A stretch of DNA of 64,000 bases from an uncultured virus (IMG/VR IMGVR_UViG_3300042406_002067) (taxonomy: Duplodnaviria > Heunggongvirae > Uroviricota > Caudoviricetes), in the IMG/VR virus record IMGVR_UViG_3300042406_002067; one strand, written 5' to 3'. Within the stretch, counting starts at the first letter, position 1; each line of letters opens with the position of its first letter. The notes under the pieces are model-generated. The model made no database searches. It was not told the DNA's origin and saw only the letters and a program-made list of their open reading frames with translations. Made by a program: the position numbers and the translations under genes. This document shows, piece after piece, positions 29,532-63,683 of the stretch.

Positions 29532-29541
29532 AACTAAAAGA

Positions 29542-29925
29542 ATGACGCAATTAGAACTTTTAACAACCGAAGGTGATATAGTAATATCTGATTGTCCTGT
29601 AACAAATTATGGACGAATTGCACGTGTTGTACAAGAATGGAATCCAATGACAAAGGAGGTTAAATTAAATTGTTGGGTGTGTTATATGCAAAATGGTGAA
29701 CGAATAAACTCAAAGCGTTTTACTCCATACAATGTAATATTAAAAGCAACAAAAGATACATTTGTAAATGCAAACACAGGTGAATTTGTCGATTCATCCG
29801 TTGCAGATGCAATACCAGAATATGATTTCTTCGTTGCAATGGCAAATAACAATATTAATATTTTCCAAGTAATTTTAAATACTGTATTGTTAAGGGATTC
29901 GCAAGGTCGATTTAATTTAGATTAA
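29542..29925 (+). CDS. hypothetical protein
   Basis: ORF in operon. Confidence 0.6.
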   Translation: MTQLELLTTEGDIVISDCPVTNYGRIARVVQEWNPMTKEVKLNCWVCYMQNGERINSKRFTPYNVILKATKDTFVNANTGEFVDSSVADAIPEYDFFVAMANNNINIFQVILNTVLLRDSQGRFNLD

Positions 29926-30269
29926 TGGGCGTATTATTGCACATAATAGCAAAAATATTATTATTGGCATTAACTCCAATAGGTATTATTTATTCATTAT
30001 TTAGAAATATCAATGTAAATTCATATTTTAAAAATACTGCAATAAGTATAGATATACTTGGCAATGTTGTTTTGCAGCATTTATTAAATGATATTTTGAT
30101 TAAAAAAGATGGATATTTGTTCGGAAATAAAAAACAAACAATTTCTTATGTAATTGCAATAAACCATAACTTAAAAAAACTTACATTTGTAGGAAATTCT
30201 TTAGCATATATTTTAGAATTATTTGATAAAGGGCATTTACAAAAATCAATTCAATTAAACACAAATTAA
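29925..30269 (+). CDS. phage membrane protein
   Basis: TM; AISIDILGNV..FGN..TIS pattern. Confidence 0.6.
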   Translation: MGVLLHIIAKILLLALTPIGIIYSLFRNINVNSYFKNTAISIDILGNVVLQHLLNDILIKKDGYLFGNKKQTISYVIAINHNLKKLTFVGNSLAYILELFDKGHLQKSIQLNTN

Positions 30270-31315: not shown

Positions 31316-31448
31316 GGTTAAACATTCAAAAAATGGGAAATTTGAACTGTAACGAAATAAGAAGCATCCCGAAATTGGCGATGGTTTTCATGTGTGGTTT
31401 CCCATTTCCACTATTGTTTACCTAGCCGTTTCGGGATGCTTTGTTTTT
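31316..31448 (+). promoter_or_regulatory. structured leader / attenuator-like RNA
   Basis: 13-bp stem AAGCATCCCGAAA (31362-31374) / TTTCGGGATGCTT (31429-31441) + T-rich tail; loop TTTCCCATTT is complementary to upstream AAATGGGAAA. Confidence 0.55.
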
Positions 31449-31464
31449 ATATAAAAATTGGAAA

Positions 31465-31764
31465 ATGAGTAATGTTGTATTAATTAATGGCGTTCAGTAT
31501 CAAAAAAACGAACCAAAACAAAAGCAAAGTTCGTATGCAACCAGGCGCATGTTGGGGATAGCAGCAATTGCTGCAGCAGTTGATCCATACGGCCATAATG
31601 GTTATGGAGGAAGTTCATACTTTAGGCAACGCCCTGCAGTAGATATTGTTAAGGAATATGAATTAATACAGCAAAAAAAATCAAAATTATCACGTAGCGA
31701 CCGCGAATGGGTTATACGTACATTCGAAAGCAACTATACAAAAATGGAGGACCAATGTTCATAA
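31465..31764 (+). CDS. hypothetical phage protein
   Basis: DIVKEYELIQQKKSKLSRSDREWV; ATG 31465. Confidence 0.65.
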   Translation: MSNVVLINGVQYQKNEPKQKQSSYATRRMLGIAAIAAAVDPYGHNGYGGSSYFRQRPAVDIVKEYELIQQKKSKLSRSDREWVIRTFESNYTKMEDQCS

Positions 31765-31958
31765 TAAAATACAACGGAATATTCGAATACGGATCAGTAC
31801 GTTTTTGGTTGTTTTGTAAGCCAAAAAATCACAATCCAACAAAATTCAAGTTCAAATGGATTGCTCAATTTTGGTGCAACATAGCAAATTCAGTTGATAC
31901 CGATTTTAAAACATACTATGTATCTGAATTGCTAAAGGAACAAGAAAATCAAATATAA
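31755..31958 (+). CDS. hypothetical protein; stop codon lies in the distal recombination core site
   Basis: ATG 31755; TAA 31956-31958 overlaps AAC 31957-31959. Confidence 0.55.
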   Translation: MFIIKYNGIFEYGSVRFWLFCKPKNHNPTKFKFKWIAQFWCNIANSVDTDFKTYYVSELLKEQENQI

Positions 31959-32010
31959 CGATTTGCGTATAAGAGCCGTTTTTTCAATGGTTTCTTATAC
32001 GCTGTTAGCA
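31953..32010 (-). repeat. attC-like site 3 (distal, 58 bp)
   Basis: AAC 31957-59, stem GCGTATAAGA-GCCGTT / AATGGT-T-TCTTATACGC, GTT 32004-06. Confidence 0.8.
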
Positions 32011-32035
32011 GATGTAAAATTTAACTTTTAAAGCG

Positions 32036-32227
32036 ATGGCAAACGAAATTATATTAAGAGCATACAAGAAAAGAGCAAAGGCATTACAGCGTAGAATTAG
32101 TGCTGAACAAGATGTAAATAAACGACTAAAGAATTTACTTGCACAATGTGAACAGCAGATTCCTAAAGGATTATTGAAAGAGCTTGTTAAGCACGAATTA
32201 GAAATGTTGAAATATAAGTACTACTAA
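32036..32227 (+). CDS. cassette C ORF, small coiled-coil hypothetical protein
   Basis: Fills the space between attC3 and attC2. Confidence 0.65.
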   Translation: MANEIILRAYKKRAKALQRRISAEQDVNKRLKNLLAQCEQQIPKGLLKELVKHELEMLKYKYY

Positions 32228-32254
32228 GTGCGGTGGCAGTTAAATTTTATTTCA

Positions 32255-32309
32255 TATAAACGTTTTGCAGCTAATAAATCGGCTTGCTGTTTATTAGGTG
32301 CTGTTATAA
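32255..32309 (-). repeat. attC-like site 2 (55 bp)
   Basis: AAC-GTTTTGCAG-CTAATAAA..TTTATTAG-GTGCT-GTT. Confidence 0.85.
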
Positions 32310-32359
32310 GCTGACGGTTACGAATTTTACTATGGAAAATTAATTTAAAAAATAAAGAT

Positions 32360-32668
32360 ATGAAAACAGAAAAACTAAAACAAACTTGCGAAAATTGTAA
32401 ACATTGGAAAAACAACCAATCAGAATTAGAGTATTGCCAAAACTCAGGAATATGTACAAGTTACAAATTGAAGTTTACAACTACCAATTATCAATCTGCT
32501 TATTTACTAGATAGAAATAATAGACACGATGTTAAATATAAAGGAGTTCAAAGATTTGAAAACACATCTAATGAAGTGCCTTTTGGTAAAGTAGAAAGAA
32601 GCCAGTATTGTTTAGTTACTGATAGTGATTTTGGATGTATAAATTTTAGCAAAACTGTTTCAAAATAG
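32360..32668 (+). CDS. cassette B ORF, Cys-containing hypothetical protein
   Basis: CENCKHW..GIC..FGCINF. Confidence 0.7.
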   Translation: MKTEKLKQTCENCKHWKNNQSELEYCQNSGICTSYKLKFTTTNYQSAYLLDRNNRHDVKYKGVQRFENTSNEVPFGKVERSQYCLVTDSDFGCINFSKTVSK

Positions 32669-32679
32669 CTACCGTTTGC

Positions 32680-32811
32680 TTATAACGTTTTGCAGCTATA
32701 TTTAGTTGCGGACTTAAAAAAACAAAACTTTAAATTTAGAACAAATGAAAATAGAAAAACAAAACTTTAGTGAAGCAGAAAGTCCGCAATTGAATATAGG
32801 TGCTGTTAGGC
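32680..32811 (-). repeat. attC-like site 1 (132 bp, long loop)
   Basis: AAC-GTTTTGCAG-CTATATTTAGTTGCGGACTT...AAGTCCGCAATTGAATATAG-GTGCT-GTT; outer arms identical to site 2. Confidence 0.85.
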
Positions 32812-33272
32812 GTAGTTTTCCTTTCAAGTATGATTGGAGTGAAAAGCAGTTTTTTATTTATGCTTGTTTCGTAGATGATTTACAACAGTTCTACAATGAT
32901 TGGGTAGAACAAGGCAGAAAAGCAGGTAGAATACAATTTTTTGACATTGGAAGCGATGGGAAATTAACTCATAAATATTGGCAACCTTCAAGTATTTGTT
33001 GCGAAAGTGGCGAAGTATTAACAAAAGAAAATATTGATGTAAAAGTAGGTTATTGGTTGCCTTATTTATGGAAGCCAATACGAAAAGATTTAAAACAACA
33101 AGCAATGAAGTTTGAAGCGTTGGAATGCCAAAAAATTGATTGCAGTTGTAATGATTGTAAACACTTAGATAGGGCAAAAAGTTGGTGTAATAAGTTGAAT
33201 AAAAAAACAAGCATAAATGAAAACTTATGTCATCCACAAAATCAAAACTGCTTTGAACACAGGCGGTCTTAA
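32745..33272 (+). CDS. cassette A ORF, Cys-rich hypothetical protein; starts inside the attC1 loop
   Basis: ATG 32745 is in the loop; SPQLNIGAVRRSF is encoded by the attC arm. Confidence 0.7.
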   Translation: MKIEKQNFSEAESPQLNIGAVRRSFPFKYDWSEKQFFIYACFVDDLQQFYNDWVEQGRKAGRIQFFDIGSDGKLTHKYWQPSSICCESGEVLTKENIDVKVGYWLPYLWKPIRKDLKQQAMKFEALECQKIDCSCNDCKHLDRAKSWCNKLNKKTSINENLCHPQNQNCFEHRRS

Positions 33273-33278
33273 AATTAC

Positions 33279-33310
33279 GCCTAACTACTATATAGATAAA
33301 ACAGTCTAAA
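33279..33310 (-). other. attI-like primary recombination site
   Basis: Minus strand ...TTTATCTATATAGTA-GTTAGGC: a GTTRRRY core with no partner palindrome, ~50 bp upstream of the recombinase ATG. Confidence 0.6.
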
Positions 33311-33336
33311 ACAACAATAAAACAAGGAGGTTCAAA

Positions 33337-34218
33337 ATGGAATTTCGAAAATGGTATGATAAATATTCGACAGATTGCAAGTTAAAATATCCAAGTGAGC
33401 GAACACAAGAAAATTATTTGTGTTCGGTTGGAACATTCTTAAAATATTTTAGCAGCGAAACAGAGCCAAAAGCAATTTCAACGCAAAAAATTAAAGAATG
33501 GCTATTAACGTTTCCAACAATAAATACGCGTAACCATAAACTATGCGCAATAAAATCCTTTTATTCCATAACAGTTGGAATGCCCATTAAATTAGAAAAA
33601 ATCCCTTTTTCTAAAAAAGACAAAAAATTGCCAATCGTTTTGTCGGTCCAAGAAATACAAAAAATGTTTGATGTATGTGCAAACCTAAAGCACAAAGTAA
33701 TATTATCGCTACTTTACTCATGCAGCTTACGTGTTTCCGAATTAATAAACCTTAAATGGCAACACATTGATCGTAGTAGGATGATAATAAATATCATTCA
33801 AGCAAAAGGCAAAAAAGATAGGCAAGTTCCACTTGATCCAGATTTAATAAAATTGTTGGAAGCATATTATTATCAATACAAATCCCAAACGTATGTATTA
33901 AACGGACAATTTGATATTCAATATACCGAAAGCAGCGTAAATCAGGTTTTAAAACAATTGGCCGATAAAGCCGGAATTTGCAACAAGCGAATATATGCTC
34001 ACCTTATACGCCACACAAGTGCTACGCACATGGTAGAATATGGTACAGATATTAATTTAATACAACGATTATTAGGGCACAACAATGTAAAAACAACAAA
34101 TATTTACTTACATTTGAGCCACAATACAATTAGTAAAATCCAAACACCAATATCACATATAAATTTAAACTCAAATGGACCAACTACGCACCGAACCATG
34201 GCTTACCGAGGAAGCTAA
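33337..34218 (+). CDS. tyrosine recombinase/integrase (XerD-like with IntI-type N-terminal domain, lacking the IntI-specific insertion)
   Basis: SERTQENY, KLPIVLS, SLRVSE (R), KGKKDR (K), HLIRH, LLGH, TTNIY (Y). Confidence 0.92.
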   Translation: MEFRKWYDKYSTDCKLKYPSERTQENYLCSVGTFLKYFSSETEPKAISTQKIKEWLLTFPTINTRNHKLCAIKSFYSITVGMPIKLEKIPFSKKDKKLPIVLSVQEIQKMFDVCANLKHKVILSLLYSCSLRVSELINLKWQHIDRSRMIINIIQAKGKKDRQVPLDPDLIKLLEAYYYQYKSQTYVLNGQFDIQYTESSVNQVLKQLADKAGICNKRIYAHLIRHTSATHMVEYGTDINLIQRLLGHNNVKTTNIYLHLSHNTISKIQTPISHINLNSNGPTTHRTMAYRGS

Positions 34219-34705
34219 CATAATACTTCAAAAAATAATTGATAATGGCAAAGATTTGCGTATTTTCGAATACGGAATGGGAGCAAGCACCATTTGGTTT
34301 TTAAAACAAAAAAATGTAAAATTGCTGCATTCCGTGGAGCACGATCCCGAATGGTTTAATTATATTAAAGAAGAAGCTGCAGAACTTTCAAAAACAAAAG
34401 AAACTTCATTGATTTTAGCAGATCAACCATACCACAATTCAATTACAAATATCCAATTCGATATTATTTTGGTAGATGGACGTAATCGCAATTTATGCAT
34501 TCAATCAGCAACACGCCATTTAGCCCCAAATGGCTTTATAATATTGGATAATTCCGAACGCGAGCATTATGCACCAGGAAAGCAATTATTAGAAAGATGG
34601 TGGAAAAAATACACGCACCAGCCAAATCCCGACAAATACGGATTCACTTATCCAGGATGGGAAACAACAATATATGTAAAAGGAGAAATACCAAAATACC
34701 TTTAA
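34175..34705 (+). CDS. class I SAM methyltransferase (glycan O-methyltransferase-like)
   Basis: FEYGMGASTIWF, SVEHDPEW, DIILVDGRNR, LDNSER. Confidence 0.75.
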   Translation: MDQLRTEPWLTEEANIILQKIIDNGKDLRIFEYGMGASTIWFLKQKNVKLLHSVEHDPEWFNYIKEEAAELSKTKETSLILADQPYHNSITNIQFDIILVDGRNRNLCIQSATRHLAPNGFIILDNSEREHYAPGKQLLERWWKKYTHQPNPDKYGFTYPGWETTIYVKGEIPKYL

Positions 34706-34709
34706 TAAA

Positions 34710-35498
34710 ATGAAAATAGCATTATTTATTACAGCAACCGGTAAATACACCGAGTTTCTTCCAAAATTAATCCAATCGGCCGATCAATATTTTTTGCCAC
34801 AACAGGAAGTTGTTTACGTTATATTTGTTTCCGATATAGCAACACCACTTCCAGAAACAAAAAGAAGCATTGAATACATCGAAGTAGAGCATAAGCCATT
34901 CCCAGAAGCATCCATGTGGCGTTCGTATTTTTATTCAAAATACCTTTCCGATTTTAATCACTACGAAAAATTTACACATTGCTTTGCAATTGATGCCGAT
35001 GCTTATTTTGCTTCCGAAATCACTCCTTTAATATGTAAGCATCATATTGTTTGTGTTGCACATGGCGCATACATAAATAGAACAGCTGCAGCACCATTTG
35101 AAACAAACGCCAATTCATCATGCTTCGTTTACAAGCCAACAATGTATGTAGGAGGTGGATTTTATGGAGGACAAACGTATAATTTTAAAGTTATGTGCGG
35201 CTTAATGTTTTTATACATTCAAAACGATAAATTTGCAGGAATTACACCAATTTGGCACGATGAATCAGCAATCAATAAATTTGTGAGTAATAATGAATCT
35301 TTGGTGAAAATTCTCCCACCAACCTACCATTATTGCGAGCACGAACCAGGTAAACTAAACCCATACATGTACGAACTTTGGATGGAAAATAAAGAATACA
35401 TTCTGCAGCGTTGGGCAATAGAACCACCATTTACACCAAAAATTATATTCATAGATAAAGACAAAGCAGCAAAAGGAAGCAATTATTACCGTAATTAA
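34710..35498 (+). CDS. family 6 glycosyltransferase (ABO-type alpha-1,3-Gal/GalNAc transferase-like)
   Basis: ATGKY..F..SADQYFL, IDAD, GGGFYGG, WHDESAINKF. Confidence 0.8.
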   Translation: MKIALFITATGKYTEFLPKLIQSADQYFLPQQEVVYVIFVSDIATPLPETKRSIEYIEVEHKPFPEASMWRSYFYSKYLSDFNHYEKFTHCFAIDADAYFASEITPLICKHHIVCVAHGAYINRTAAAPFETNANSSCFVYKPTMYVGGGFYGGQTYNFKVMCGLMFLYIQNDKFAGITPIWHDESAINKFVSNNESLVKILPPTYHYCEHEPGKLNPYMYELWMENKEYILQRWAIEPPFTPKIIFIDKDKAAKGSNYYRN

Positions 35499-35583
35499 CA
35501 TTCAATTGTTAATAAGTAAATTAAAATAAAGTTTGCATATTACAAATAAAGGTTTAATATTGCCTAAAATTTACATACAAAAA

Positions 35584-36318
35584 ATGGGAAATAATCATGT
35601 ATATGTGCTTTTAGCCGTTCGTAATGGCGAACGCTACATTAGATACGCTATTGAAAGCGTTCTAAACCAAACCCACCAAAATTTTAATATTTTTATTCTT
35701 GTAAACGGATGCACCGACAATACTCAAAAAATTGTTAATGAATATTCTGTTCAATATCCTACTAAAATAAAGGATTTTACAATGCTAAACGATGCAAATA
35801 AATCAGGATCGTTAAATTATGGAATATCAATTGCATTAGATTATGCAAGTAAACTTTATGGATTTCCAAAATCAGAATGGTTTGCAATCCAGGATGCAGA
35901 TGATGTATGGCATCCAACAAAGCTGGAAGAACAATTAAAATATGCCAATGCATACGATGTTATTGGTACCGATTGTTATTATATTGATGCACAAAGCAAA
36001 GAAATAGAAATAAATCCACGCCCACGCCCATTTTTGCACGATAAAATAGTAGAAGATGCCTACAATGGGCACAATCCAATTGTAAATTGCAGCGCACTTA
36101 TTCGTGCCAATTTAATGCAGCAATTTCCATACAATCCCGAACTTGATGGAATAGAAGATTATGATTTATGGCTACGCATTATGCGTTATACCGATAGTAA
36201 ATTCATAAATATTCCACAAAAATTAGTGGACCACCGAATTCATGCAAATAGCCATTTTAATACAAAAAATTACACCGAAAAAATAAATCAATTAATTCAA
36301 ACCTATAAACAAAAATAA
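35584..36318 (+). CDS. family 2 glycosyltransferase
   Basis: AVRNGERYI..AIESVLNQT, QDADD, EDYDLWLR. Confidence 0.85.
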   Translation: MGNNHVYVLLAVRNGERYIRYAIESVLNQTHQNFNIFILVNGCTDNTQKIVNEYSVQYPTKIKDFTMLNDANKSGSLNYGISIALDYASKLYGFPKSEWFAIQDADDVWHPTKLEEQLKYANAYDVIGTDCYYIDAQSKEIEINPRPRPFLHDKIVEDAYNGHNPIVNCSALIRANLMQQFPYNPELDGIEDYDLWLRIMRYTDSKFINIPQKLVDHRIHANSHFNTKNYTEKINQLIQTYKQK

Positions 36319-36321
36319 AAA

Positions 36322-36819
36322 ATGGAAGAAAGCGCAATATTTTGGATGGTAGTATCAGCAATAATCACATTGATATACGTGCCAATAATCTACAAACAAA
36401 ATCAGTATAACAACAAATTAATAGAGGAAAACGAAGAACTTAAAAGTGAAGTACAATCACTACAAAAGCAGTTGGAAGAATCAACTGAAATTATAAATGA
36501 TCTTAAAAAAATTGAACAAAAATATAATTTTATTCGCAGTAATACACGCAAATTTAATATTGGTGATAAGGTAGGCGTATATACTATTGAAAATGTTGAT
36601 GTTAAAATACCAGGAATTGTAGATCACCTTATTGGAGTAGGACAAATTTTTATAAATTGGCTTACCGGAACAAAAATGAAGCCCGAAACAGATCCACATT
36701 TTGTTTATGAATGTAGCGATGGCAATCCAATTAATACTCGTTTTACCGAAAATTACTTGGTTAAAATGGCAAAAGAATCCAAAAAAGCACCCAAAAAAGC
36801 AAAAACAAAAACCAACTAA
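36322..36819 (+). CDS. N-terminal TM coiled-coil hypothetical protein
   Basis: Sequence architecture. Confidence 0.6.
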   Translation: MEESAIFWMVVSAIITLIYVPIIYKQNQYNNKLIEENEELKSEVQSLQKQLEESTEIINDLKKIEQKYNFIRSNTRKFNIGDKVGVYTIENVDVKIPGIVDHLIGVGQIFINWLTGTKMKPETDPHFVYECSDGNPINTRFTENYLVKMAKESKKAPKKAKTKTN

Positions 36820-36831
36820 ATAATTAAAATC

Positions 36832-37230
36832 ATGGCAAAAAAAGCAACCACAAAAAAAGCAGCACCAAAAAAGGCTGCAGGTAAATCAAAACGTGTTTCA
36901 GTAGTAAAAGAAATGAAAATATTGAAACCGAAAGCACCATCCGAAAACGATAAAAAAATTATTGGAGCATATTTGCACGGTAGAACTGCAGGTGCAGAAA
37001 ATGAAAAGTTGGAACAAAAAATTAGAGAAAGTCAAATGCAATCAGGTCCAAAAATTACCGCACGTGTATCATTTGAATTAAACGAAGCAAACAATTGCAA
37101 AATTAATGTTTCTGGCGATTTTAATGTTATCCTACAAAAAATGCACGAAATCCAAAATCAATCAATTACAATTGATAAAGGCGAATTTTTTGCTGTAGCA
37201 GCAAAAATGATGAAAGGAGAGCAAAAATAA
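36832..37230 (+). CDS. hypothetical protein with basic N-terminus
   Basis: ORF in operon. Confidence 0.6.
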   Translation: MAKKATTKKAAPKKAAGKSKRVSVVKEMKILKPKAPSENDKKIIGAYLHGRTAGAENEKLEQKIRESQMQSGPKITARVSFELNEANNCKINVSGDFNVILQKMHEIQNQSITIDKGEFFAVAAKMMKGEQK

Positions 37231-37874
37231 TGCTTATACCATTCGCAACACTTATAGATAAATACGGAATACGCCCCAAGGGTGTATTCCATATTGGTGC
37301 CAATACAGGGCAGGAGGCACAACAATACCTGGATAAAGGAGTTGAAAATCAAATTTGGATTGAACCAATCCCCGAAATTTTTGAGCAACTTCAAAAACAC
37401 ATCGAATCAAACCCACATGCATTTGCAATACAAGCATGTGTAAGTGATAAATCACTTCAATCAGTTACATTCAACATTACCAACAATAATGGCGAATCTT
37501 CATCCTTTTTGCCACTCGATAAGCATTTGGAATACCATCCTTCCGTTCAAAATGTGGAATCAATTGATATGATCACCATCACCGTTGATGATATAATTGA
37601 ACATGCATACATTGATATGGAGCATTATGATTTTTTGAATATAGATATTCAAGGAGCCGAATTGCTTGCATTAAAAGGCATGGAAAAGAACCTAAAGCAC
37701 ATAAACTACGTTTACACGGAAGTTAATGATCAGGAGCTTTACAAAGGTTGTGCATTGGTACATGAAATTGATGCTTTTTTATCCGAACATGGATTCGAAG
37801 CAGCCGAATGCAAAATGACCGAGTGCCATTGGGGAGATAAGTTCTATATTCGTAAAAACATAAATAAAGGTTAA
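37230..37874 (+). CDS. FkbM-family methyltransferase
   Basis: HIGANTGQE, IEP, NIDIQGAELLALKG, YTEVN. Confidence 0.85.
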   Translation: MLIPFATLIDKYGIRPKGVFHIGANTGQEAQQYLDKGVENQIWIEPIPEIFEQLQKHIESNPHAFAIQACVSDKSLQSVTFNITNNNGESSSFLPLDKHLEYHPSVQNVESIDMITITVDDIIEHAYIDMEHYDFLNIDIQGAELLALKGMEKNLKHINYVYTEVNDQELYKGCALVHEIDAFLSEHGFEAAECKMTECHWGDKFYIRKNINKG

Positions 37875-61328: not shown

Positions 61329-63683
61329 ATGATTGACTACAAAAAACTTAATTCACTTCCTGCAGCATTGCGTAACAAAGTTATTTACGAAGAAAAATTA
61401 ATCACCAAAAAAGAAATGATTGATGATGTTATTCTCGTTAAAAAACTTATTGATGTAAAGCAATTGGATTCCTATAAACAAAAGCCATACGTTATTTACG
61501 ATCATTCTGGGCATCGATTTACATTTGTATCAAAAGCCGAAAAAAAATACATCGATTATTTAATCAAAAAAATAAATGAAGGTGGCCAAACCGAATTGGA
61601 GCACAAAGCCACAATCAAAAAAATACAAACCGAATTACCATCCACAAACAAAGCCGCAAAATACATTGCAGCCGATCATATTGAAGAAGATACTGATTAT
61701 TACAAAAAATTACTAGGTGCAAAATTAGAGCATGGCGGAAGCGTAAAAATTGGCGTAGACGAGATGTTTGAAAAAACAAAACAATATTTAGATACAAAGA
61801 AGGACTTGTTTTACACAATAGGAGCAAATAGCAAAACTGATTTCGGGCAAAGTAGATATATCTATGTTTTTGAAAAAGGAGGCGATTCATTTGAAAATAA
61901 AAAAATAAGAATATCAGATCACTCTGTTACAAACATAAACAGGCTAATGGACGAATATCATATTTTTGACGAAAATGAGATTAAAGACAAAGTGGATTTG
62001 ATTGAATATTATTTTTTTCCAGAAAAATTTACAAAGCAAGAAGTTTTTAATGACAACATCGTAAGTATGGAAATTCCTGCTTCTCAAAAAAAAGAAACAG
62101 ATATTGTTGTTTCAGAAAGATTGAGTTCTGCAAAACGAGGCGCAGGGAGATTGATTTATTCAATAAAAAGAAATAATCCACAAAAAACAATTAAAATAAT
62201 TAACCCTAACCGTAATGATGCAGTAATTGGTTCTTATAGGCCGCATTTAGAGCGTGGCGGAAAAGTTCAATCGTTAAAAGATGGAACCGTATTAAAAGGG
62301 CCAAGCCACGATAATGGCGGAATCGAAATTGTTGTAAATAATAAACCGGTAGCCGAAGCCGAAGGTGGTGAAGTGGTAATTAATGCCGAAAATAGCAAAG
62401 AATATTGCCATGAATTATCTGAAATTAACCAACGCGATGGTAATGGAAAACCATTAGATTGCGGTTGTGCAGGAGAACAAACCGATAAAATGGAGCATGG
62501 TGGAATGCTGAATACAGAAGATGAAACAACAGCAATAAAAGTAACCAATATTGAATCAAAAAGAATATTTTATGTATTGGCAATTAAAACAGCGTATGGA
62601 TACATTGCAAAAAAAGCAAGTGGAAACCCATGGAGCGTAAACCAATCGTATGGCAAAAAGGCTTTTAAAACAATAGGTGAAATTGTTTTAAAATTAAAGC
62701 AAGAGTACGGAATGGCTGAAATAGATGCCGATTATTTTAATAATTTAAACAAAATGGAGCATGGTGGCGAAATTAAACTTAACAATGTTGATTTGGAATT
62801 TGATGAAATGGCACGTGGCGGATTAATAAACAAACGCATGAAATTTCCTAAAAACGCCAAAGCGCAGGATGGTAAATATGGTTCAATTAAATCCGAACCA
62901 CAAAAAAGCGATTATCAAAAAAACAAAGAAATTGAGCAATTAATCGACCAAAAAGGCGATGATCCAAACAATTACCTGTTTTCAGAAAAACAATTTTTGC
63001 GCGAATACTCAGGTTACGGTGGTATTGATGTAGAAGAATTTGGCTCAATAGAAGAAGCTAAAAAAGCATTAACAGAATTTTACACACCAGATGCAATTAT
63101 TCGCAAAATGTGGGCATTGGCTTATAAGTTTGGATTTAAAGATGGGCAATCTGTTTTGGAGCCAAGCGTAGGAACAGGCGAGTTTTTAAAATATGTTCCA
63201 ACTCAAAGCATGGCTACAGGTTATGAAATAAACAAATACAGCTATACTATTTGTAAAATATTGTATCCTCAATTCAACTTTTATTTGCAGCCATTCGAAA
63301 ATATTTTTATTAAAAACCGCGATACCGTTAAAAATAAGTTGTCGGATATTCAAAAATTCGACCTTGTAATTGGAAACCCTCCTTATGGCGATGTTTCTGG
63401 ATTAGGAATGGGAATGGGCGAAAAACAATATACAAACGCAAAAAATTGGATAGAATATTTTATTTTACGCGGATTAGACTTAACTTTGCCAAACGGATTA
63501 TTAATTTATATTATTGGAACCGAAGTTGCAAATGGAGGCACACCATTTTTACAACAATCCAACAGCAAAATTAAGCAAATGATTGCCGATAAAGCCGATT
63601 TAGTAGATGCTTACCGATTACCAAATGGAGTTTTTGACCGTACCGATGTATTAAGTGATATTCTTGTATTTAAAAGAAAATAA
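61329..63683 (+). CDS. polyvalent protein: DUF5661-like domain, several GG-linked modules, C-terminal DNA N6-adenine methyltransferase (DarB-like)
   Basis: ELEH..AAKYIAADHIEE..DYYKKL; GPSHDNGGI..EAEGGE; EFYTP, VLEPSVGTG, VIGNPPY. Confidence 0.8.
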   Translation: MIDYKKLNSLPAALRNKVIYEEKLITKKEMIDDVILVKKLIDVKQLDSYKQKPYVIYDHSGHRFTFVSKAEKKYIDYLIKKINEGGQTELEHKATIKKIQTELPSTNKAAKYIAADHIEEDTDYYKKLLGAKLEHGGSVKIGVDEMFEKTKQYLDTKKDLFYTIGANSKTDFGQSRYIYVFEKGGDSFENKKIRISDHSVTNINRLMDEYHIFDENEIKDKVDLIEYYFFPEKFTKQEVFNDNIVSMEIPASQKKETDIVVSERLSSAKRGAGRLIYSIKRNNPQKTIKIINPNRNDAVIGSYRPHLERGGKVQSLKDGTVLKGPSHDNGGIEIVVNNKPVAEAEGGEVVINAENSKEYCHELSEINQRDGNGKPLDCGCAGEQTDKMEHGGMLNTEDETTAIKVTNIESKRIFYVLAIKTAYGYIAKKASGNPWSVNQSYGKKAFKTIGEIVLKLKQEYGMAEIDADYFNNLNKMEHGGEIKLNNVDLEFDEMARGGLINKRMKFPKNAKAQDGKYGSIKSEPQKSDYQKNKEIEQLIDQKGDDPNNYLFSEKQFLREYSGYGGIDVEEFGSIEEAKKALTEFYTPDAIIRKMWALAYKFGFKDGQSVLEPSVGTGEFLKYVPTQSMATGYEINKYSYTICKILYPQFNFYLQPFENIFIKNRDTVKNKLSDIQKFDLVIGNPPYGDVSGLGMGMGEKQYTNAKNWIEYFILRGLDLTLPNGLLIYIIGTEVANGGTPFLQQSNSKIKQMIADKADLVDAYRLPNGVFDRTDVLSDILVFKRK

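Follow-up and report, generated by a model that had tools for sequence, protein, structure and literature searches.

Comparative evidence for an integron-like cassette array linked to a Xer-like recombinase in a lake-water phage

The window analysed here is a 64,000-nucleotide stretch from an uncultured virus (IMG/VR record IMGVR_UViG_3300042406_002067); a match to a tail fibre, a giant DarB-like protein and close IMG/VR relatives attest to its viral nature. In this lake-water phage, three small accessory genes appear, from the comparison of related sequences, to be exchangeable cassettes lying beside a phage-encoded recombinase in an integron-like layout. The + strand is coding throughout the window; on it, between positions 31957 and 33285, imperfect hairpins and single-gene units, three of each, follow one another in alternation. 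The features of the locus are as follows.

31707..31958, + strand: conserved phage open reading frame (ORF) of 83 aa; its stop region adjoins the first core, and homology to the near-identical relative L001 ends at 31952
31957..32006, + strand: hairpin 1, AAC-GATTT-GCGTATAAGAGCC...GGTTTCTTATACGC-T-GTT (AAC 31957-59, GTT 32004-06), heading the distal cassette
32036..32227, + strand: gene C (63 aa), without a family match; its unit (32004-32261) has weakly matching ends
32259..32305, + strand: hairpin 2, AAC-GTTTT-GCAGCTAATAAA...TTTATTAGGTGC-T-GTT (AAC 32259-61, GTT 32303-05)
32303..32686, + strand: gene unit B, GTTATAAGC...GCTTATAAC, with gene B (32360-32668, 102 aa, Cys-rich, viral hypothetical family)
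32684..32807, + strand: hairpin 3 (AAC 32684-86, GTT 32805-07), with a stem of ~24 bp and a 64-nt A-rich loop that contains the ATG of gene A (32745)
32805..33285, + strand: gene unit A, GTTAGGCGTAGTTTT...AAAATTACGCCTAAC, with gene A (32745-33272, 175 aa, no family match), which starts inside hairpin 3
33279..33296, + strand: last core and attI-like junction, GCCTAAC followed by TACTATATAGA; the left side is variable among phages, the right side conserved
33337..34218, + strand: Xer-like tyrosine recombinase, 293 aa, with invariant catalytic residues and without the IntI-specific insertion

The original prediction, made from the window alone, had described three AAC...GTT palindromes separating three single-gene units and a fourth core, GCCTAAC, about 50 bp before the recombinase. 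All of these sequence features were found where they had been placed, the fourth core at 33279-85, 51 nt 5' of the ATG at 33337. The cores read TATAAC/GTTAGCA, ATAAAC/GTTATAA and TATAAC/GTTAGGC, plus the final GCCTAAC. The identical outer arms ascribed to sites 1 and 2 had been wrongly numbered: AACGTTTTGCAGCTA and TAGGTGCTGTTA, which each occur in 2 exact copies across the 64 kb, are the arms of hairpins 2 and 3. Complementary ends, predicted for every unit, are present in unit A (inverted repeat 32805-19 / 33271-85, 15 nt, 93%) and in unit B (32303-27 / 32662-86, 25 nt, 76%) but not in unit C. The unit ends follow the consensus GTTAnnnGCwG ... TTGCnnnTAAC, and the cassette-specific ends are complementary over 9–20 nt. 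As for the genes themselves, A, B and C had no match in Pfam, NCBIfam or PHROGs. Gene A had no relatives in viral contigs and a best ESM Atlas score of 0.81, which is the chance level, and the ESM Atlas matches of gene B (0.91–0.94) were to unnamed viral clusters alone.

Comparison with related phages showed that this region is variable and that its variation follows the cores. Two phage contigs, L001 and L002, are 90–97% identical to the window on both flanks; homology is lost at 31952 and regained at the AAC of 33285. Between these borders, L001 carries a 139-aa ORF, an MT-A70 methylase, a 233-aa ORF and a C5 cytosine methylase, divided by hairpins of the same design and again with complementary unit ends. 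The sole piece of the variable region common to both is hairpin 2 (48 nt, 96% identity), which has other genes to its left and right. Phage contig L007 contains a copy of gene unit B, 92% identical over exactly 32302-32686 (GTT to AAC), with other hairpins on both sides, and contig L003, whose recombinase is 71% identical, has the same architecture directly upstream of its recombinase. In the same contig (3985-4236), a whole small ORF (~45 aa) lies in a hairpin loop and is followed by a 41-nt geneless unit, GTTATAAGTAA...TTACTTATAAC.

Rearrangement of cassettes is seen in the pair L021 and L020, whose backbones are 98.4–98.8% identical. They have 4 cassettes in common (100, 98.8, 100 and 99.4% identity), which are arranged as A-B-C..D in one and as C..D-B-A-x in the other (letters denoting the cassettes of this pair), joined at TAACG. 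This order was read from blastn maps, which replaced a segmentation of cassettes with lenient cores that had over-split the arrays. An all-against-all blastn comparison of the arrays gave 221 high-scoring segment pairs (HSPs). Those with both ends within 4 nt of a core comprised 11 that ran from AAC to AAC (a hairpin and the gene downstream of it), 8 from AAC to GTT (hairpin only, 81–96% identity), 3 from GTT to AAC (gene only, ~92% identity, one apparently spurious) and 0 from GTT to GTT (a gene and the hairpin downstream of it). Nine of the 10 AAC-to-AAC pairs listed trace back to three different cassettes, of 339, 287 and 331 nt, whose copies in two array types of close relatives are 100% identical. 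This sharing, together with the permutation in L021 and L020, indicates that the recent mobile unit is a hairpin plus the gene after it, and the crossover appears to lie inside TAACG, at the hairpin's 5' side. Thus, the cassettes do behave as discrete units with borders at the cores, as the prediction had it, but the unit that moves is AAC-hairpin-gene-AAC, with the genes pointing towards the attI-like site, and not a gene with the attC that follows it.

The right-hand border of the variable region coincides with a putative docking site. We compared 65 distinct upstream regions, in which sequence variation extends as far as (T)AAC and gives way, about 50 nt 5' of the start codon, to a conserved stretch (TAYTATATGT...). 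A variable-to-conserved junction resembling TAAC followed by TAYTATATGT (loose pattern AAC-N3-5-ATATGT) was present in 63 of them as compared to 11 of 285 control windows. The docking site of the window is AAC followed by TACTATATAG, 51 nt 5' of the recombinase gene. Such a junction next to an integrase gene is what is expected of an attI site, and its occurrence in nearly all of these regions, along with the extra DNA found at this point in the cultured phage Freya_10, bears out the attI-like role that had been proposed for the core before the recombinase.

One Polaribacter strain was the isolation host of both Freya_1 (43,978 bp) and Freya_10 (48,920 bp). Their flanks are 100% and 99.6% identical, and the difference between them is a 4.94-kb block with 12 small annotated genes. 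In Freya_10, this block, which holds hairpins of the design described here, lies exactly between ...TTGTTTACAAC and ACCCCTATAAC, at the AAC, 47 nt 5' of the integrase ATG. The Polaribacter phage Leef_1, whose recombinase is 33% identical, has the same design directly upstream of its integrase. The ten cultured Freya isolates, all from one host, range from 43,978 to 48,920 bp, with intermediate lengths among them.

Discrete movement with borders at the cores is therefore evident in L001, L007, L020/L021, the Freya phages and the blastn comparison of the arrays. The original prediction had named fixed gene content in relatives, with breakpoints away from the cores, as part of the outcome that would speak against it; in the relatives, gene content varies and the breakpoints lie on cores. 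The variable content, the core breakpoints and the attI-like site all support its proposal that the virus carries its own platform for gene capture and shuffling.

The linkage between array and recombinase was surveyed in 80 viral loci (L009-L088) with recombinase homologues (55–99% identity), fetched from the family alignment. A unit was scored if it ran from GTT to AAC, had terminal inverted repeats of at least 9 nt and had a hairpin of the design on either side; the scanner replaced two earlier hairpin scanners, one of which demanded an outer complementarity that is absent from the arrays while the other was too loose. Upstream of the recombinase (293 kb), there were 91 such units on the sense strand and 1 on the antisense strand, as compared to 4 and 6, respectively, downstream (413 kb), and 40 of the 80 loci had, upstream on the sense strand, at least one both-flanked unit. 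When run on the window, the scanner returned 2 units on the + strand (exactly B and A) and 0 on the - strand, with ten shuffles giving 0, 0, 0, 1, 0, 0, 0, 0, 0 and 0. The comparisons show exact borders of the variable region, mobile AAC...AAC cassettes and an array linked in place and strand to the recombinase. In 14 of the 80 loci, the contig stops no more than 600 nt upstream of the recombinase gene, where a repeated and variable region would be expected to break assemblies.

Could the enzyme be an ordinary lysogeny integrase, next to an unrelated 'moron' hotspot in which repeated intergenic hairpins recombine, by homologous or illegitimate means, and so shuffle the genes? Similar shuffling has been proposed for the promoter-stem-loop cassettes of T4-type phages, and hairpin families with common 15-nt arms could support homologous exchange. 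Moreover, the integrases of flavophages were interpreted as indicating temperate potential (Bartlau et al., 2021, PMC8776804; this and the other papers cited here are drawn on in part). We nevertheless consider this explanation very unlikely. The arrays lie directly upstream of the recombinase and on one strand in 40 of 80 loci, with 91 units against the 1, 4 and 6 of the controls, TAAC junctions are found even between hairpins of different families, and the insertion in Freya_10 falls at one AAC next to the integrase. Besides, in the 10 of 64 parts of the genome collection that were scanned, homologues with at least 65% identity were found only on 2 contigs of metagenome-assembled genomes (MAGs; 12 and 81 kb, i.e. 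short or phage-sized), with none inside bacterial chromosomes and all other matches at no more than 46% identity.

The hairpins share a design and not a sequence. We aligned 98 distinct hairpins with units on both sides, in which AAC and GTT are invariant by definition of the sites. Their consensus is TTGCnnnTAACGKTTn-stem ... stem-TGTTAnnnGcwG; a T precedes AAC in 82% of them and an A follows GTT in 84%. They have a conserved R-box arm of ~11 nt and the inverse cores RYYYAAC ... GTTRRRY of attC-type imperfect palindromes. They range in length from 45 to 218 nt (median 122), and their spacers are asymmetric, with 3–6 nt (mode 5) on the 5' side and 0–2 nt (mode 1) on the 3' side. The fine structure of classical attC sites, with a central spacer of ~5/6 nt and extrahelical bases, was not found in them: the spacer is 5/1, and no pattern of extrahelical bases could be established.

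Several observations give indirect support to folding of the hairpin strand. When the sites of the window were folded as DNA, the + strand had the lower energy at site 1 (-11.0 vs -10.3 kcal/mol; z -2.8 vs -3.0 on the - strand), site 2 (-8.7 vs -5.1 kcal/mol; z -2.3 vs -0.6) and site 3 (-17.7 vs -13.4 kcal/mol; z -2.2 vs -1.0). The predicted preference for the + strand was therefore seen at 3 of 3 sites and is clear at hairpins 2 and 3. With strand-neutral detection that treated G.T and A.C alike, the stems contain 227 G.T vs 118 A.C pairs, and in the 98 hairpins a conserved T at position -8 and G at +8 can pair on the hairpin strand only. The G.G mismatch of hairpins 2 and 3 and the conserved T.G pair at ±8 may play a strand-marking role, and the + strand would be the folded recombination substrate. 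A test for covariation in a fixed register gave 30% Watson-Crick pairs vs 27% in the shuffled control, with intervals that were set only by the flanking units and were swamped by spurious ones.

Hairpins of the same design also occur in bacteria, namely in Pedobacter glucosidilyticus DSM 23534, in a Parvicellaceae MAG and in an Ohtaekwangia MAG. The Pedobacter chromosome (L102, 7830-12008) has at least 4 cassettes with near-identical hairpin arms, AACGTTTTGCAGCTAC...GTAGGTGCTGTTA, and complementary unit ends, adjoining a 42% identical Xer-like recombinase that also is without the IntI insertion. In this array the gene precedes the hairpin, as in classical cassettes, and the hairpin strand is the antisense strand of both the ORFs and the recombinase, whereas in the phages ORFs and recombinase run in the sense direction. 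Over the three bacterial loci, G.T pairs outnumber A.C pairs 37 to 10. The orientation of the Pedobacter array bears on the view that the hairpins act in RNA as terminators, mRNA stabilizers or translation controls, their link with gene turnover being secondary. Such roles would fit the position of the phage hairpins between genes on the coding strand, the long loops that contain the start codon of the next gene and the tolerance of RNA for G.U pairs. However, since the G.T bias in Pedobacter is on the strand antisense to the ORFs, folding of mRNA does not explain it. Neither was there a terminator-like site with a T-run at any hairpin (terminator and promoter scans remained at background level), nor an Rfam match (0 at the hairpins, Rfam being without an attC covariance model), and the exact AAC borders and the attI-like junction would be left unexplained. 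We give this view almost no credence.

The recombinase contains the Pfam domains Phage_integrase and SAM_4, and its catalytic residues R132, K157, H222, R225, H248 and Y257 are invariant in a 25-member family alignment. Its best NCBIfam model is XerA_Arch (184.8 bits, cut-off 220), followed by XerD (156.2, cut-off 329.6), XerC (152.5, cut-off 335) and the integron integrase TIGR02249 (148.7, cut-off 265, in two stretches). With XerA, XerD and XerC scores below their cut-offs, and as a phage gene beside a multi-site array, it does not have the profile of a Xer chromosome-dimer resolvase. Among solved structures, XerA, a XerC-like protein and the Vibrio integron integrase VchIntIA were matched about equally, at ~100 bits each. 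In the alignment to VchIntIA (2a3v), residues 16-174 of the phage protein correspond to IntI 15-177 and residues 197-274 to IntI 243-319, so that 22 residues stand where IntI has 65; the IntI-specific, I2-containing domain is therefore absent, and the enzyme is not of the IntI type. The family is large, with 4910 proteins at E <= 1e-30 (Xer relatives included), 137 relatives confirmed in viral contigs and, in metagenomes, at least 120 clusters at 68–81% identity (~277 aa, on contigs of up to 74 kb).

These properties of the enzyme lend some weight to a model in which the cassettes are exchanged as duplex DNA: a Xer-like recombinase would act, as at dif or lox, on short double-stranded sites made of TTGCnnnTAAC, the spacer and the first bases of the stem, and the hairpins would merely be inverted binding arms that do not fold as single strands. 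Its scores resemble those of XerA, XerC and XerD, it lacks the extra domain of IntI, the R-box arm is conserved over 11 nt, and exchanges are seen on both sides of the hairpin, as the two cleavage points of a duplex site would allow. This model leaves unexplained why pairing is kept in stems that are free in sequence and in length (45–218 nt), why G.T exceeds A.C by 227 to 118 with a conserved T.G at ±8, on one strand only, and why the cassette-specific unit ends are complementary over 9–20 nt, which is relevant only if they pair; an asymmetric 5/1 spacer is, furthermore, impossible as two equal arms in duplex DNA. We therefore regard exchange through duplex sites as unlikely, although it is the most credible of the alternatives.

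Contigs assembled from four lake-water runs, other than the possible source runs, point to the same borders (only assembled contigs were used, and absence of cover in runs X4-X6 carries no meaning). They end or diverge at 31945/31954, 32009, 32259, 32306, 32676-32686, 32819 and 33285. In run X3, hairpin 2 had a depth of 61 vs ~3.5 for the neighbouring genes, and in run X6 a single 79-nt contig holds exactly 32259-32306 between other flanks.

Considering all these data, we conclude with considerable confidence that 31957-34218 is a phage-borne, integron-like platform for gene capture. The locus consists of three cassettes, then the docking site, then the small Xer-like tyrosine recombinase, all on the + (coding) strand, each cassette consisting of one gene preceded by an imperfect hairpin (TAAC, ~5-nt spacer, stem, loop, stem, ~1 nt, GTTA). 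The adjacent recombinase, as the probable catalyst of cassette exchange, would exchange strands at each hairpin's 5' AAC. Recombination between two such AAC sites would release a hairpin and its gene as a circle, in which the two ends of the gene unit could pair and so complete the base of the hairpin; re-entry of the circle at the docking site or at another hairpin would result in gain, loss or reordering of cassettes. Given the orphan DNA methyltransferases among the cassettes of relatives, the array probably stores counter-defence and other accessory genes. As judged from sequence comparison, the system itself is real and statistically strong; catalysis, single-strand folding and circles are the parts that we infer.

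Several observations weigh against this interpretation. Unit C has only an internal 12-nt repeat (32015-26 / 32238-49), and its R-box ends are unmatched. The left border of the variable region, 31952, lies 5–7 nt before the first AAC and not at a core, and L001 has no counterpart core there. Neither end lies at a core in 157 of the 221 array HSPs, and no both-flanked unit was found in 40 of the 80 loci, many of which have little upstream sequence. The scanner was written after the window had been seen, i.e. it was not blind, and many of the loci are contigs related to one another, so that the counts do not represent independent events. The sharing of hairpins only and of genes only implies exchanges on the GTT side as well, which would not follow if each hairpin had one crossover point. 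Such exchanges could stem from a further cleavage point on the 3' arm, from the other strand being used now and then, or from the attachment of hairpin families to new genes during the making of cassettes. One lake contig has a joint that goes back 425 nt, from 32683 to 32259 (15 ambiguous nt), as would a circle junction; since the interior of unit B is also replaced in that contig, another array explains the joint equally well. In the integron literature, the I2-containing insertion is tied to single-strand recombination (IntegronFinder 2.0 preprint; eLife 2020, PMC7790495), and this recombinase is without it. Finally, P12002L_attC1, a site from the Polaribacter phage P12002L that has the design seen here, was the one site of six that IntI1 did not recombine (Qi et al., 2023, PMC9892861).

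As in integrons, a recombinase gene lies beside the docking site and an array of single-gene cassettes is bounded by palindromes with AAC/GTT cores, the cassette ends are complementary as after circular excision, and the crossover falls on one strand, at the AAC; if the hairpin strand is regarded as the 'bottom strand', the order becomes the classical one of cassettes, attI and recombinase. The differences concern the recombinase, with 22 aa vs 65 aa in VchIntIA and a score below the cut-off of the integron-integrase model; the spacers, ~5/~1 nt as compared to the classical 5/6 (aadA7 control, Table S3 of Qi et al., PMC9892861), with an R box of ~11 nt; and the arrangement, in which the hairpin precedes the gene, the genes run towards attI and the recombinase, many loops contain a gene start and the whole is virus-borne. 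The integron layout claimed by the original prediction is thus upheld for the cassettes, the cores, the docking site and the recombinase, but given that this recombinase is without the IntI-specific domain, the system is better called integron-like.

The nearest published precedent is provided by the attC-site clusters that have no integron integrase (CALINs) in phages. Qi et al. (2023, PMC9892861) described 3 complete integrons and 17 CALINs in phages, including P12002L with its methylase cassettes. Its attC1 (TGCTAAC-GGCTA-stem...stem-ATT-GTTAGGC), a site called by HattCI (PMC9892861), has the present design and lies in such an array between methylase genes. The IntI1-active attC2 of the same phage is a repeat found twice on the + strand (29193 and 37219), distinct from the - strand hairpin array at 32280-30009 that includes attC1. 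Unlike CALINs, the array of the window is associated with a docking site and a Xer-like enzyme; in P12002L no integrase is annotated. The part of Qi et al. (PMC9892861) drawn on here discusses no non-IntI recombinase of the phages' own and no attI, and makes no mention of 'Xer'. Likewise, no title or abstract in the literature covered, which excluded subscription journals, describes an integron-like system with a non-IntI recombinase in phages or Bacteroidota. IntI is defined by its extra domain, and few integrons are reported in Bacteroidetes (IntegronFinder 2.0 preprint, in the part used). As detection tools define integrons by this domain, systems of the kind described here would be invisible to them or filed as orphan attC clusters; the recombinase family is nevertheless abundant.

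The pdif modules of Acinetobacter plasmids are gene modules bounded by inverted sites, with one conserved 28-bp duplex site and the XerC/D of the host. The phage arrays resemble Xer/dif and pdif systems in having a Xer-type enzyme and modules bounded by inverted recombination sites. They differ from them in that the sites are sequence-variable hairpins, the unit ends are cassette-specific and the enzyme and the docking site are their own.

A more far-reaching proposal is that the compact Xer-like recombinase, without I2, performs integron-type recombination of folded single strands. I2 would then be dispensable, Bacteroidota and their phages would harbour a second integron lineage, either ancestral or convergent, and the reversed cassettes of the phages, with a promoter and start codon in the hairpin loop before the gene, would serve as a rapidly reshuffled store of counter-defence genes. 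We offer this tentatively and put its chances at somewhat short of even. If true, exchange on both sides of the hairpin would offer new genes a direct route to a recombination site, which is the unsolved problem of cassette genesis. Phages would possess a gene-capture device of their own, and the DNA methylase cassettes of the relatives suggest rapid adaptation to host restriction. The habit of equating the presence of an integrase with a temperate phage would come into question for flavobacterial phages. The cultured phage-host pairs (Polaribacter phages Freya and Leef) make both the mechanism and the need for I2 in hairpin recombination directly testable.

Other parts of the window have features that lie outside the array. 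Directly 3' of the recombinase, 34175-37874 encodes a Methyltransf_24-like protein, glycosyltransferases of family 6 and family 2 and another methyltransferase-like ORF, all of them modification genes. A DNA search of the window region against the INPHARED phage collection gave no match. On the other side of the array, an additional gene of ~100 aa (31465-31764) is missing from the 90% identical L001, and this indel has no hairpins of the cassette design at its borders; a second indel relative to L001 is at 29539-30241. A long-range hairpin, GCATCCCGAAA ... TTTCGGGATGC, with a loop of ~60 nt, lies at 31362-31445, just 5' of the promoter-like TATATAAAAATTG. It is kept in L001 (2678-2752) and may represent a small RNA or a regulatory element that precedes the variable genes. 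The DarB-like antirestriction / DNA methyltransferase giant protein is apparently split between positions 12-2030 and 61329-63683 of the window, which fits a circular genome of ~70 kb.

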